The position numbers were made by a program, and so were the translations under genes. A stretch of 64,000 nucleotides of DNA, taken from IMG/VR virus record IMGVR_UViG_3300042691_019786. One strand, 5' to 3'. Positions 21,240 to 63,498 of the stretch are shown piece by piece (the stretch's first letter is position 1; each line of letters starts with the position of its first letter). Source of the DNA: a virus. A model generated the notes under the pieces. That model worked only from the letters and a program-made list of their open reading frames with translations. It did no database searches and was not told the origin of the DNA.

Positions 21240-21368
21240 AAGATTGCCCTTTTTTTTGTGCTACCCTTACACCACACGCCCCTACCTCTGTTTTAGGACA
21301 TGCTGGGATTCGAACCCAGTCCCTTTGTTATCTATACAAATTTTTAGTTAACTTGCTGAAACAATCTT
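21240..21368 (-). ncRNA. Circularly permuted tRNA-mimic (YrlA-like topology) on a TCAGCAA stem
   Basis: AAGATTG-TTTCAGCAA, then T arm, loop-closed acceptor stem, D arm, CAATCTT. Confidence 0.65.
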
Positions 21369-21409
21369 TTAATTACTCTGTAAGACAGAGGACTTAATAC
21401 TGGGGGAAC

Positions 21410-21533
21410 AAGATTACTTTTTTGATACGTGCTCTATCCGCTGAGCTAACCGCCCAATTAAGGACAGTATGGGATTCGAACCCATGACCACGAGGTTAAC
21501 AGCCTATTCAGTTTTTGTTGCTGAAATAATCTT
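21410..21533 (-). ncRNA. Circularly permuted tRNA-Asn mimic on a TCAGCAA stem
   Basis: AAGATTAT-TTCAGCAA, agg-ctGTTaa-cct, T arm, loop-closed acceptor, D arm, GTAATCTT. Confidence 0.65.
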
Positions 21534-23315: not shown

Positions 23316-23344
23316 TTGTTTTTTTTTTATTTTACGTTATTTTG

Positions 23345-23479
23345 TGTTGCCAGTAGGATTCGAACCTACAGTGTTATGTCACAACCCCCGTTTACCCCAT
23401 CACCCACACTTGACAAGGTGTAGTCTAGTCTTTACAGACGGGTCAGTGGAGTGAGTCTACCAAATTTCTCCATAGCAAC
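23345..23479 (-). tRNA. Leu-type tRNA body with an ~50-nt structured insert in the anticodon loop
   Basis: Acceptor GTTGCTA/TGGCAAC, D arm, long variable arm, T arm; ct[insert]TAAac. Confidence 0.55.
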
Positions 23480-24370: not shown

Positions 24371-24496
24371 TCGGAAGGGTTAGACTCGAACTAACACTCT
24401 GCGGTTCCGATTAGCGTTTTATTTGCTGAACTTAATCTTTAAAACAGATTAAACTTTTTGCAATACCGCTGCCTCTACCAATTGGGCTACCTCCCG
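24371..24496 (-). ncRNA. tRNA body whose anticodon loop is replaced by the TCAGCAA stem
   Basis: Normal acceptor, D and T arms; TTAATCT/AGATTAA-GTTCAGCAA inside the gcggt/accgc stem. Confidence 0.65.
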
Positions 24497-48529: not shown

Positions 48530-49654
48530 TTACAACATTTTATATAACGTTTTATCGTCATAGTTAAACATATATTCTTCAACTGATGCTATTTTGTAAT
48601 CTTTCAACCCAAAATACAACCCAGTAAAGTTTTTTAAATCATATTTCTCACAAACTTCAAACACAGCAGCAGCAAACTTTTTTTGTTCTGGTTTTGTTAC
48701 GTTTTTTGGTTTACGCAACTTTAATTCATCCCATACAACATTCAATTTTGCAACCAACGCATCGTAAGACTCTTTAAGACGATTTAATTCTTCTGTTCTT
48801 TCTGGGAAAGTAGCAGCAAATTCTTCTATCTCGTTAGTTTTTACAATAGTTAATATGTTGTGTTCAGCAGTTTTACCTTTCAAGTGGTGTACCGCAACAT
48901 ATGCTGGATTTTTCACTTTAACACGATTGTCATTACCATCACGTACAACATAACCTTCTTCAGACCATGGCATACCTTCAAATGTTTTCAACAAGTGACC
49001 AACATTTTTTGCGTTTAAATCAAAAGATTTTACCAATGGTATATCCAATGATACCGCAGTCATTTCCAAGTCTCTCCCAGACAACTCAACAAGTGTTTTT
49101 CTGTTTCTAACAGCCAACAAAGTCGCTGATGATTCACCATGTGGTTTTACTACTATGTTATATGGTGTAGTTAACTCAAACACATAGATATAATCATAAT
49201 TTAACAAACATGCATTGAATGTGTATTTGTTGTTAACAGTATCCCAAAACAATTCGTTAAATTTAGTACCATTTTTGTTGTTAACTTCACCTTCACCGTT
49301 TGCAGTACCAGTAGTACCAGCATACCATGTCATGTCGTGCCAATCATAATACACTTGTATCATAGTACCATCCAATTTTTCAAGTACTTGTGCAGTATTC
49401 CAATCTATTTTAGCAGCGTTACCTTCTTCAGAGTTGAAGAATTTTCTAAACGCCAAAGACATTACGTTCCAAGTACCTTTTTCAAGGATGATTCCACGAC
49501 AATCTTGCATCTCTGGCAATGACATAAGTGTTGGTGACACTAATTGGTCATACTTCAAGAGTATTTTGTGTTCATACTCTCTAGTTTTTAAAGAAAAGTC
49601 TTTGATTGTTTTTTCTAAACCGTGTGTTCTTAAATATTTTTGTATAGCTAACAT
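48530..49654 (-). CDS. Rnl1-family (T4 RnlA-like) RNA ligase
   Basis: CRG, KFFN, EKLDG, FEL, EGYV and VKVK...Y motifs. Confidence 0.9.
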   Translation of the reverse strand: MLAIQKYLRTHGLEKTIKDFSLKTREYEHKILLKYDQLVSPTLMSLPEMQDCRGIILEKGTWNVMSLAFRKFFNSEEGNAAKIDWNTAQVLEKLDGTMIQVYYDWHDMTWYAGTTGTANGEGEVNNKNGTKFNELFWDTVNNKYTFNACLLNYDYIYVFELTTPYNIVVKPHGESSATLLAVRNRKTLVELSGRDLEMTAVSLDIPLVKSFDLNAKNVGHLLKTFEGMPWSEEGYVVRDGNDNRVKVKNPAYVAVHHLKGKTAEHNILTIVKTNEIEEFAATFPERTEELNRLKESYDALVAKLNVVWDELKLRKPKNVTKPEQKKFAAAVFEVCEKYDLKNFTGLYFGLKDYKIASVEEYMFNYDDKTLYKML

Positions 49655-50951: not shown

Positions 50952-51848
50952 TCATTGTTTTTTTATTTCAGTGACAATACCACTTATCATAAATGATTTA
51001 ATGTCTTGCCATTTTGTTATTTGATTGCTCATAACTGGTTTACCACCATCTGGGTTAATCGCAATAGTTATATGTGGAATTTCATTTTTTGATGGATAAC
51101 CGCTAACTCTTACAGCCATAGCTTTATCTGAAAGACCTAACGCTTCAACTGTCAATGTAACTTCTTTACCTAAATCAGTTTTATCTTTAAGTTCACCCAA
51201 ATTTATTGTCATATGATGTGTTATCACAGTCCAATCTTTTGGTATCCATATACCAAGTTTATCCAATAACGTACCTTTGGATTGTCCATCCAACAAAACA
51301 CAAGAATATAACACATCTGATTGTTTATACATATCTTTAGATTCAACTATTTTTTTAACAGTCAATGGCCCAACAGATTTATGTGAATCCATCATCATTT
51401 TTATTTTATCTAATGGAACTCCATGTGTATTTGACTCAGCTAATTGCTCAGCAGTCAAGTTACGAGTGCCAACATCATGTATTTGTATGTTGTTATCATC
51501 AAATCCCATTTCCAACGCTGCAACAACATATGCTTTAGCCTCATTGGCTTTGATATTCGTGTTATCTATTACAACTGGACTAATACCATCTTTCATAGAT
51601 TTGATTGCGTTAGATAAGTTCTTAGAGTGCATTCTAGACAAATCTTTAAAGTCTCCAGACTCTATCATTTTAGCAAAGAAACCTCTGTAGTCACCAGTAG
51701 CTTCAATTAAATCATCTGTTGAATGAATTATCCCTTCACCCATTAGTGATTTCGCCATTGTTGATTTTCCAGCCCCAGGAATACCACGCATCACAAACAA
51801 TTTTTGTGATGGTCTAGTTATTTCGATATTTAAAACATTTTTTTTCAT
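50952..51848 (-). CDS. P-loop polynucleotide kinase fused to a 2H cyclic phosphodiesterase
   Basis: GIPGAGKST, DNTN and HGVP motifs; HMTI and HITI. Confidence 0.82.
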   Translation of the reverse strand: MKKNVLNIEITRPSQKLFVMRGIPGAGKSTMAKSLMGEGIIHSTDDLIEATGDYRGFFAKMIESGDFKDLSRMHSKNLSNAIKSMKDGISPVVIDNTNIKANEAKAYVVAALEMGFDDNNIQIHDVGTRNLTAEQLAESNTHGVPLDKIKMMMDSHKSVGPLTVKKIVESKDMYKQSDVLYSCVLLDGQSKGTLLDKLGIWIPKDWTVITHHMTINLGELKDKTDLGKEVTLTVEALGLSDKAMAVRVSGYPSKNEIPHITIAINPDGGKPVMSNQITKWQDIKSFMISGIVTEIKKQ

Positions 51849-53148: not shown

Positions 53149-53218
53149 TACCGACTGTGAGGTTCGAACTCACTTAACCATCCATATGAGGGACGGTCCT
53201 TTTCCACTAAGTGTCGGC
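53149..53218 (-). tRNA. tRNA-CAT (Met/Ile2) with a shortened D arm
   Basis: cgtcc-ctCATat-ggatg. Confidence 0.7.
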
Positions 53219-53224
53219 ATTTTG

Positions 53225-53326
53225 CTCACCCACTAGGATTCGAACCTAGGACCTAACGGTTAACACTCCTTGTATGAACTTACTTATCATACCTAGCCGT
53301 TTGCTCTACCACTGAGCTATGGGTGA
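53225..53326 (-). tRNA. tRNA-Asn(GTT) with a 30-nt insert (53265-53294) in the anticodon loop
   Basis: aacgg-ct[insert]GTTaa-ccgtt; the rest is canonical. Confidence 0.8.
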
Positions 53327-53336
53327 ATATTTGTTG

Positions 53337-53410
53337 CTCTCCCTCTAGGATTCGAACCTAGGACCCACGCATTAACAGTGCGTTGCTCTAACCTACTGAG
53401 CTAAAGGAGA
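53337..53410 (-). tRNA. tRNA-Asn(GTT)
   Basis: acgca-ctGTTaa-tgcgt. Confidence 0.92.
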
Positions 53411-53420
53411 ATATATTTTG

Positions 53421-53497
53421 TACAGAAGGTGAGATTCGAACTCACATGTGACCAACTACCCTTTCTACAAGATATAAGCTTGAGGGGATACATCTGC
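53421..53497 (-). tRNA. Non-canonical tRNA-Ile(TAT) lacking a normal D arm
   Basis: Acceptor and T arm present; caag-ctTATat-cttg; D-loop-like TAGTTGGT lies 3' of the anticodon arm. Confidence 0.6.
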
Positions 53498-54786: not shown

Positions 54787-54821
54787 AATCTAGCACTCTA
54801 ACCAACTGAGCTAACGCCACC
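54787..54821 (-). pseudogene. 5' half of a tRNA-His-like gene, truncated at the anticodon loop
   Basis: GGTGGCGT-TA-GCTCAGTTGGTTAGAGT-G-CTAGA-TT, then the HNH promoter. Confidence 0.7.
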
Positions 54822-55001
54822 GTCTATTGTAACAAATATTATTATGTTACCGTTTTCTTTTTTAAATCTTAGGTCACCGTTGTAACCCATTTGTTTTGCT
54901 TTTTCTTTATACTCGTCAACTATTTCATCAAAGTTTTCGTTAAACTTTTTTACTTTTACTTTTCCGAGTGGTCTTACTAATTCTTCCATAGTTATAAGCA
55001 T

Positions 55002-55059: not shown

Positions 55060-55155
55060 CTATTCTATGATGTTATTTAACATACCTTGACCGTTATGGA
55101 AACTATTGCGTCTCCAATTATTAATCGAAATCATATGTATGTTAATTGTTCTCAT
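55060..55155 (-). CDS. Leader peptide 4 MRTINIHMISINNWRRNSFHNGQGMLNNIIE
   Basis: Rich in R,I,N,H,M,S,W; downstream tRNAs are His, Trp, Ser, Ile, Ile, Asn, Asn, CAT, Arg, Arg, Ser. Confidence 0.88.
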   Translation of the reverse strand: MRTINIHMISINNWRRNSFHNGQGMLNNIIE

Positions 55156-55265
55156 TTTTATATTAAATATATCGTTTTTTCTAAAAAGTTTAAATTTATA
55201 CTACAAATGTACAAACTTTTTTTCTATTTGTCAAGTGTTTTTGTAATTATTTTTTTAATTTTTTC

Positions 55266-57112: not shown

Positions 57113-58243
57113 TCAAAAAATAAATATATCTAGATAAAGTTTTTTAAAATTATCAGTTTCTAGTCTTTGTATTTCTTTACCTAATTCTGGTCCTTGTTTT
57201 AACCCCATCTTTGTCATTAGGTCTGAACCATTAACCGTTAATTTAAATAATAAAAATGTATCTATAATCTTTACATCAATACCACTTAATTGAGCAAATC
57301 TAGTTATTTGTTCTGCTGTTACACCAGATGTCTTTTCAGCTTTTTTAAGCGTTACAGCTGTATCAATCGACAAATTCAATAGACTAATCAAAAATGTAAT
57401 AGCTCTTATTTCATCAATTGAGTATTTTAATTTGTTCAATTGTTTTGTTAATAAATCAACTTTATTATTCTTTAACAACATTGCTAAAACAATAATTATA
57501 TCATTATCTTCAATGAAATTTTTATTAACATTAACATCTTTAAAAACCCAATCAAATAAATTGTATTTGTCAATCATTTTTAAAAACGATTTTACAGATT
57601 TTGCTGATTTGATACCTTTCAAAAACTCATCTCTGATTCTTTCACCAGATATACCTTCCAAACTAGCATCTTTTTGCAATGCAGCGTCAACTGATGGGTC
57701 TAATTCACTACCAAATCTACCAGCAAATCTAATTGCTCTTAATATACGTAATCTATCTTCACCAAATCTATCTTCAGCTGCACCTACAGTCCTTACAACA
57801 CTGTTTTTAAGGTCTTCTATACCATCAACCAAATCAACAACTTCTGACGTGTCTATATCGTAAAATAATGCGTTGATTGTTAAGTCACGTCTTTTAACGT
57901 CACCTACTATATCTGTAAAACTAACACCATCTGGTCTTCTACCGCTAGATAAGTCTTCCCTAAAAGTTGCGATTTCGTATTCACCCATATCAGTAAAGAC
58001 GTTGATAACACCAAATGCTTTACCAGTTGGTAAAGTTCTAAAACCACCTTTAGCCATTATGTCTTCCACTTGGTCTGGGATAGCATCGGTTGCCAAATCG
58101 TAATCTTTAGGTGTTTTACCTAACAACGCATCACGCACTGCACCACCTACAACATATAGGTTAAAACCATTTTGCTTAAAAACATCTTTTATTTGTAAAA
58201 TGTCTTTTGGTATTGGCATATCAAATATAATTCTCTTTTCCAT
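57113..58243 (-). CDS. cca: CCA-adding tRNA nucleotidyltransferase (class II)
   Basis: VGGAVRD...DYD, RRDLTINAL, EDRLRILRAIRF and ERI..E motifs. Confidence 0.92.
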   Translation of the reverse strand: MEKRIIFDMPIPKDILQIKDVFKQNGFNLYVVGGAVRDALLGKTPKDYDLATDAIPDQVEDIMAKGGFRTLPTGKAFGVINVFTDMGEYEIATFREDLSSGRRPDGVSFTDIVGDVKRRDLTINALFYDIDTSEVVDLVDGIEDLKNSVVRTVGAAEDRFGEDRLRILRAIRFAGRFGSELDPSVDAALQKDASLEGISGERIRDEFLKGIKSAKSVKSFLKMIDKYNLFDWVFKDVNVNKNFIEDNDIIIVLAMLLKNNKVDLLTKQLNKLKYSIDEIRAITFLISLLNLSIDTAVTLKKAEKTSGVTAEQITRFAQLSGIDVKIIDTFLLFKLTVNGSDLMTKMGLKQGPELGKEIQRLETDNFKKLYLDIFIF

Positions 58244-59671: not shown

Positions 59672-59723
59672 AACTTTTTTTTAATAAATATATCAATAAT
59701 AATGCCAAAGTAAACATTATTTG

Positions 59724-59794
59724 TGGTCTTAGAGGGAATCGAACCCTCACTATCGGTTTTAGAGACCGTTACGCTGCCGTTACATCATAAGACC
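59724..59794 (-). tRNA. Amber suppressor tRNA (CTA)
   Basis: Cloverleaf; acggt-ctCTAaa-accga; own promoter motif at about 59806. Confidence 0.88.
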
Positions 59795-63423: not shown

Positions 63424-63498
63424 TTGGCCAGAATCTGTTTTTTTTACTTTGCTTAGAATATAGTATAGTTAAATTGCTGAATAGATTCTTTCTGCCAA
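63424..63498 (-). ncRNA. TCAGCAA-stem RNA
   Basis: TTGGC..AGAATCT-ATTCAGCAA...AGATTCT.GCCAA. Confidence 0.55.

Follow-up and report, generated by a model that had tools for sequence, protein, structure and literature searches.

The interrupted tRNA-Asn gene

A tRNA-Asn gene of a jumbo phage carries 30 extra nucleotides in its anticodon loop, which raises the questions of whether the insert is removed from the RNA and how it came to be where it is. The gene lies at 53225-53326 (-) of the window, the 64,000-nt stretch of viral DNA analysed here (IMG/VR record IMGVR_UViG_3300042691_019786), and matches the Rfam tRNA model at 58.4 bits, with 35 nt standing where loop positions 34-38 belong. An earlier note on this DNA had described an intron-like hairpin between positions 33 and 34 of an otherwise canonical tRNA-Asn, and we confirm its coordinates, its sequence and the intron-like position: all four tRNA stems are fully paired (0 mismatches) and the insert falls inside the anticodon loop, which is 37 nt long. 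The gene has a U1-A72 pair, G73 and no encoded CCA. Its parts are:

53295-53326 (-): 5' exon, with the acceptor 5' strand, the D arm, the 5' strand of the anticodon stem, C32 and U33
53265-53294 (-): insert, with a 2-nt linker, a 6-bp hairpin, a 9-nt loop, a purine-rich linker and an invariant GAGU
53287-53292 paired with 53272-53277 (-): stem strands of the insert hairpin
53265-53268 (-): GAGU at the insert end
53225-53264 (-): 3' exon, with the anticodon GUU, A37, A38, the T arm, the acceptor 3' strand and G73

Excision of the 30 nt at 53265-53294, between U33 and G34 of tRNA-Asn(GUU), leaves a 7-nt loop (CU-GUU-AA), and ARAGORN calls the spliced window gene tRNA-Asn. The boundary can also be written between C32 and U33 with the same product; other registers (A34, Thr, Pro) were ruled out by the intronless allele. 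The GUAUGA/UCAUAC hairpin of the insert is predicted with pair probabilities of 0.94-1.0, and the anticodon is unpaired in the best fold of the interrupted RNA. The whole 102-nt RNA has a folding z of -3.2. Because the insert-bearing arm alone folds at only z -1.8, the hairpin is unremarkable on its own, and it is conservation that marks it as non-random. An assembly error does not explain the interrupted gene, since six other assemblies of the window phage contain an identical copy and none of them (0/6) has the intronless form.

The phage and its tRNA operon

The window is part of an AT-rich jumbo phage (31.6% GC, genetic code 11) that is contained in several freshwater metagenome assemblies and has related phages with sizes up to 245-325 kb. 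There are 34-35 tRNA genes in the window. The coding strand has 22 copies of the octamer TACATTTG and the opposite strand 3; given this strand bias and the agreement of the octamer with the Bacteroidota promoter box, TAnnTTTG, the host is probably a member of the Bacteroidota. The following features surround the interrupted gene:

57113-58243 (-): CCA-adding nucleotidyltransferase (the tRNA genes have no encoded CCA)
55060-55211 (-): head of the tRNA operon, with a Bacteroidota-type promoter box TACATTTG (55204-55211) and a 31-codon leader ORF containing 7 Asn codons
54151-54821 (-): tRNA-His 5' half (54787-54821, ending at U33), a 192-aa HNH gene and a replacement tRNA-His
53337-53410 (-): uninterrupted tRNA-Asn(GUU) of the same operon, 10 nt upstream of the interrupted gene and the neighbour that the earlier note had claimed
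50952-51848 (-): fusion of an AAA_33 polynucleotide-kinase-like domain and a 2H cyclic phosphodiesterase (tRNA_lig_CPD), a candidate end-healing enzyme and core gene of the clade
48530-49654 (-): T4 Rnl1-family RNA ligase (PF09511), a candidate sealing enzyme and core gene of the clade

The tRNA-His 5' half is identical to the intact L312 gene as far as U33, and the second tRNA-His, after the HNH gene, is complete and different from the split one. From its sequence this block appears to be a comparable event at U33 in the same operon; the HNH that goes with the Asn insert is a different one.

Several other genes are unusual. A rearranged UAU tRNA-like gene at 53421-53497 (-) and a CAU tRNA-like gene with an odd D arm at 53149-53219 (-) are both kept in relatives, and a Thr-like tRNA gene at 23344-23479 (-) has about 40 extra nt. 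The tRNA at 59723-59794 (-) has a CUA anticodon, yet the window ORFs use TAG as a stop; in relatives a PTH2 gene lies near it. At L314:1555-3774 and L318:1-2176 an insertion with a GIY-YIG gene interrupts the gene of the CCA enzyme.

Conservation and distribution of the insert

Pattern scans, together with walks from the operon-head gene and from a neighbouring HNH gene, identified the insert in at least eight related phages (the window phage, L314, L009, L363, L362, L317, L034 and L001), which is an undercount of the family because the metagenome scan pattern fixed the length of the 3' linker and missed window-type inserts. These inserts are 30-32 nt long and comprise six sequences in five tRNA bodies (acceptor-stem types), with identical boundaries throughout. 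All eight have the layout A, S, 6-bp stem, 9-nt loop, stem, 3-5-nt linker and GAGU, and are followed by an invariant GUUAA. The stem is 100% paired in every carrier, with one swapped position that is A-U in five and G-C in three, and the covariation depends on this single base pair. Paired changes in a DNA hairpin can also come from template switching without selection. Between L001 and L034, 5 of 15 unpaired sites differ and none of the 16 sites in the stem and GAGU (Fisher p 0.018); the stem and GAGU are apparently under selection. In all eight carriers C32 could pair with G, and U33 with A, at the end of the insert; since these pairs never vary and add little energy we do not treat them as evidence.

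When spliced, the L363 gene (L363:799-900) is identical at 72/72 positions to the plain tRNA-Asn of L312 (L312:7087), and this fixes both the insert site and the Asn isotype. Seven of the eight spliced products are called tRNA-Asn by ARAGORN. The exception is L362, in which the insert is intact, the tRNA stems have extra mismatches and the product after splicing is not called a tRNA. The tRNA bodies are thus intact in 7/8 carriers, including all three (window, L317, L034) in which no HNH gene accompanies the insert.

At the syntenic cluster of seven related phages the insert is absent. The non-carriers have two or three plain Asn genes in the cluster and the carriers have one plain and one interrupted gene, so that the interrupted gene occupies a regular place in the cluster. 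Every carrier whose cluster can be seen also retains a plain tRNA-Asn, and the phage may therefore be able to do without the interrupted copy. Carriers are scattered on a tree of five flanking proteins (moderate support, recombination likely): L317 has the insert and its sister L316 (87% aa identity) does not, and the same is true of L314 and L318, respectively. The window, L314 and L009 share one insert sequence, letter for letter, and the flanking proteins of the latter two are 71-75% identical to those of the window. Judged by these comparisons, the insert is optional in the clade, conserved and mobile.

No version of the insert with an ORF, or of greater length and with the same 3' junction, was found in IMG/VR or GTDB, no bacterial chromosomal copy was present among the 120 GTDB matches listed, and no cultured phage with the insert was found. 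L305, a candidate longer relative, is an unrelated 3' half with no intron model match. An alternative fold in which GAGU pairs with the D stem is 6-10 kcal/mol worse in 7/8 carriers and slightly better in L362 only. Readings of the insert as a kink-turn, hairpin ribozyme, T-loop mimic or micro-ORF were inspected by eye and revealed no conservation.

Linkage to an HNH nuclease

The earlier note had missed a link that is new here: in five of the eight carriers an HNH gene or its remnant lies directly before the interrupted tRNA. In L009, L314, L362 and L363 a 113-aa HNH-type gene stops a few bases before it, in L001 there is a 3' remnant of the HNH gene, and the window, L317 and L034 have no HNH beside the interrupted tRNA. 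The HNHs at least 83% identical to that of L009 are all (4/4) directly followed by an interrupted tRNA. Two caveats are that L362 and L363 were discovered via the HNH and that the Pfam scores of the HNHs are below the cut-off. More widely, tRNA-Asn is the nearest neighbour of 19 of the 31 distinct HNH relatives near tRNAs, versus about 30% expected; the P of 2e-4 for this adjacency is optimistic because the 31 rows are related.

Members of the same HNH family are associated with tRNA-Asn in other ways. In L331 one lies beside a tRNA-Asn with a true group I intron at 35/36, and in L323 and L335 the tRNA-Asn is broken at the anticodon with an HNH of this family in the gap. A tRNA-Asn with a long variable arm stands directly behind an Asn-linked HNH at L322:1845, L325:1839, L327:2061 and L364:1843, and this long arm probably offers a different way to become immune. 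The insert is not a recognizable remnant of the HNH gene, as their longest shared word is 8 nt and the similarity is not significant (shuffle p 0.29).

These associations suggest that the HNH is very probably a homing endonuclease that cuts plain tRNA-Asn, with the insert as the immune allele. T4 SegB, in a tRNA cluster, is one case for comparison. The other is collaborative homing, in which a free-standing homing endonuclease acts together with an ORF-less group I intron (PMC2988022, PMC10448857). Shared with it are a nuclease gene beside, not inside, the sequence that splits its presumed target, and a patchy spread; L331, where a member of this HNH family adjoins a tRNA-Asn split by a group I intron, is a direct example. 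The Asn insert differs in having no ribozyme and no known removal route, and here we infer both the HNH target site and the immunity of the interrupted allele. In such a process, a free-standing HNH of the tRNA-Asn-dwelling family would attack the uninterrupted tRNA-Asn genes of related phages in a co-infection, cutting at the anticodon or close to it. The insert would split the cutting site and make the interrupted allele immune, and repair would copy insert and nuclease into whichever tRNA-Asn body was cut; in the window the nuclease may have been lost or left behind. The HNH linkage would account for the spread of the insert without any defence role.

Possible removal of the insert from the RNA

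If the insert is removed, proteins must do it, because it is far too small to excise itself. The earlier note was right that the insert is too small to self-splice. Its 30 nt are too few for a group I or II ribozyme, the group I catalytic core (P3-P9) alone taking about 200 nt or more; there is no RF00028 match in the window (L331 does have one) and no Rfam intron or ribozyme match to the insert, and there is no conserved P1-like pairing with a U-G wobble among the eight carriers. The insert ends in U in the U33 register and in G in the C32 register, and its interior is not tRNA-like (no T arm). The insert also differs from archaeal and eukaryotic tRNA introns, whose splicing endonuclease the note had said bacteria lack: it does not lie at position 37/38, and no bulge-helix-bulge (BHB) is found at the junctions in any register of the eight carriers. 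No register reaches 4 of 4 pairs, and in the correct registers the central helix has 0-2 of 4 pairs in 7/8 carriers and 3/4 in one. There is no tRNA_int_endo/EndA among the 25 best Pfam families of the 83 window ORFs and no splicing endonuclease in records of five further phages, most of them incomplete and one of them from a carrier. The 67-aa operon-head protein (54798-55001), considered as a possible cutter, gives a small beta-alpha-beta-beta model (best Z 4.9) with no nuclease match. We know of no case in bacteria or their viruses in which protein removal of a tRNA intron has been shown.

The ligation enzymes that the earlier note had pointed out do lie near the interrupted gene: the Rnl1 and the AAA_33 kinase/tRNA_lig_CPD fusion are 1.4-3.6 kb downstream and are present whether or not a phage has the insert. 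Ligase, kinase and cyclic phosphodiesterase together constitute the domain set of fungal Trl1, and T4 PNK and Rnl1 can stand in for Trl1 in yeast tRNA splicing (PMC10946435). As core genes of the clade they permit splicing and do not prove it, and ordinary tRNA repair explains their presence.

On the sequence evidence we lean slightly towards the view that the insert is spliced out. The exact restoration of the tRNA, the intact bodies in 7/8 carriers, the apparent selection on stem and junction and the normal gene slot argue for it; the retained plain copy, the decay of L362 around an intact insert and the covariation from one pair count against it. We give about an even chance to the joint reading, a protein-spliced mini-intron spread by collaborative homing. 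More tentatively, and at a little under even, we propose that Bacteroidota jumbo phages may perform protein-catalysed tRNA splicing in a bacterial cell, on an HNH-mobile hairpin intron of 30 nt whose junctions bear a non-BHB signal of their own, by means of an endoribonuclease, Rnl1 and the kinase-phosphodiesterase. The precursor would retain its cloverleaf, and the 6-bp hairpin, possibly with the C32-G and U33-A pairs to the GAGU end, would bring the junctions together. An endoribonuclease, of the host or of the phage core, would cut on the 3' side of U33 and on the 5' side of G34. The kinase-phosphodiesterase and Rnl1 of the phage would then rejoin the halves into its second working tRNA-Asn.

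It is also conceivable, if unlikely, that the RNA is never spliced and is nonetheless functional, as a tRNA-shaped non-decoding RNA that is also the HNH-immune allele and serves as a decoy for a tRNA-Asn-directed nuclease or synthetase, or as a protein-binding RNA. The selection apparent on stem and GAGU, the constant retention of the plain tRNA-Asn, the lack of a splicing signal of known type and the other tRNA look-alikes in the window with extended or permuted arms (24371-24496, 21240-21530) would fit such a role. However, the boundaries restore an exact natural tRNA (72/72), GUUAA is invariant (8/8), the UUCAGCAA motif that marks the look-alikes is missing from the insert, and a decoy has no obvious gain from moving among five bodies. 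Decidedly less probable is that the insert is a selfish scar that kills the tRNA, is tolerated thanks to the second tRNA-Asn and spreads by HNH homing only, the bodies looking intact since each homing event hits a fresh gene. Such a scar would be consistent with the HNH linkage, with the decay of L362, with the broken tRNA-Asn halves that the same HNH family leaves in L323 and L335, and with identical inserts in distant phages as a sign of recent copying. It agrees poorly with the drift of loop and linkers while stem and GAGU do not change, with the intact bodies of the HNH-less carriers (window, L317, L034) and with the absence of significant likeness between the insert and the HNH gene.

The earlier note proposed a masked reserve tRNA, activated by cleavage and phage ligation; with a host anticodon nuclease as the cutter, this seems to us very improbable. 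Heal-and-seal genes are nearby, T4 repairs PrrC-cut tRNA-Lys (PMC10264068), both junctions are U/purine and an Asn-rich leader ORF heads the operon. Excision nevertheless requires two exact cuts 30 nt apart, whereas anticodon nucleases normally make a single cut, and make it in a 7-nt loop, which is missing from the precursor; moreover, the insert is optional (absent from seven relatives) and its distribution tracks the HNH gene. Removal catalysed by RNA, through a tiny self-splicing unit or a group I ribozyme acting in trans via the C32/U33 register, is barely credible. That register does place C at -1 and G at omega, like the Leu.3Cg class (10.1101/2020.01.27.920355), but the insert has 30 nt, no Rfam intron or ribozyme match and no conserved P1-like pairing, and the U33-G wobble of the window is broken in L363.

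Comparison with known tRNA introns

Protein-dependent splicing, our preferred reading, would bear on a puzzle that has stood without a mechanism since 'enigmatic' tRNA introns were described in the Lak megaphages (Devoto et al. 2019, PMC6784885, Table S6). The Lak introns share with the Asn insert a large Bacteroidota-type phage, a position in the anticodon loop, optional presence between relatives, no Rfam intron match, sequence identity across distant samples and splicing that is putative. They differ in that the Lak inserts examined are about 80-115 nt long, follow the anticodon in Tyr, Phe, Thr and Gly and have a T-loop or tRNA-like fold, whereas the Asn insert is a plain hairpin of 30-32 nt, precedes the anticodon and goes together with a free-standing HNH. 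Being an optional, conserved, non-Rfam anticodon-loop insert of a jumbo-phage tRNA, the Asn insert can be classed by sequence as a variant of the Lak-type phage tRNA introns. In a literature search that covered sources other than subscription journals, we found no papers on the 33/34 Asn insert family or its HNH link, and nothing on such inserts or on phage tRNA splicing beyond PMC6784885.

Group I introns in bacterial tRNA anticodon loops include fMet.2Ug at 33/34 and Leu.3Cg (Williams 2020, 10.1101/2020.01.27.920355). The former shares with the Asn insert its loop position and a 5' exon ending in U; unlike these introns, the Asn insert is without a catalytic core and without a P1 U-G wobble, and ends in U (U33 register). 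With archaeal BHB introns, fungal Trl1 splicing and T4 Pnkp-Rnl1 repair it has in common a short anticodon-loop intron (protein-spliced there) and the phage ligase, kinase and cyclic phosphodiesterase domains. Bathyarchaeia tRNA-Asn genes have inserts of similar size at the same site, unrelated in sequence. Archaeal and eukaryal tRNA introns differ in their BHB motif, which the Asn insert lacks, and no EndA/TSEN was found in the records searched.

The family offers a compact test case. Its RNA has 102 nt, the L363 and L312 alleles are a natural pair that differ by the insert only, and the insert itself comes in six natural variants; a nuclease of 113 aa is the candidate for its mobilisation, and the candidate joining enzymes are encoded in the same part of the genome. 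If the insert is spliced, bacteria would have protein-dependent splicing of a tRNA, with a splicing signal that is new; if it is not, the family would still show how homing nucleases reshape phage tRNA arrays.

Other unusual tRNA-like genes

The gene at 24371-24496 (-) of the window has a tRNA body with C1-G72 and A73 and a 52-nt anticodon-arm extension with an AAAAAG..AAUCU / AGAUU..UUCAGCAA helix. It looks like a non-decoding tRNA mimic, and similar genes are present in L189, L217, L238 and L270. At about 21240-21530 (-) there are two circularly permuted tRNA-like RNAs with the layout of YrlA/Y RNAs, in the order UUCAGCAA motif, T arm, loop-closed acceptor stem, D arm and AAAAAAG.AAUCUUG. 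This region is 84% conserved in G001, and the UUCAGCAA motif recurs near 63480, 62580, 12312 and 10846. No TROVE/Ro gene was found in the records of five further phages, most of them incomplete.

The scans also matched interrupted tRNA genes elsewhere. Unrelated hairpin inserts of 21-41 nt lie inside or next to the anticodon of viral-contig tRNA-Asn and tRNA-Lys/Met-like genes at L191:77-166, L208:9306, L211:1193, L007:1866, L011:7993, L014:1399, L015:11921 and L170:1723, and the remaining matches were mostly giant-virus-type 37/38 introns. The tRNA genes at L003:7422, L259:7631 and L269:163 have two tandem anticodon arms, with CUA in the first.
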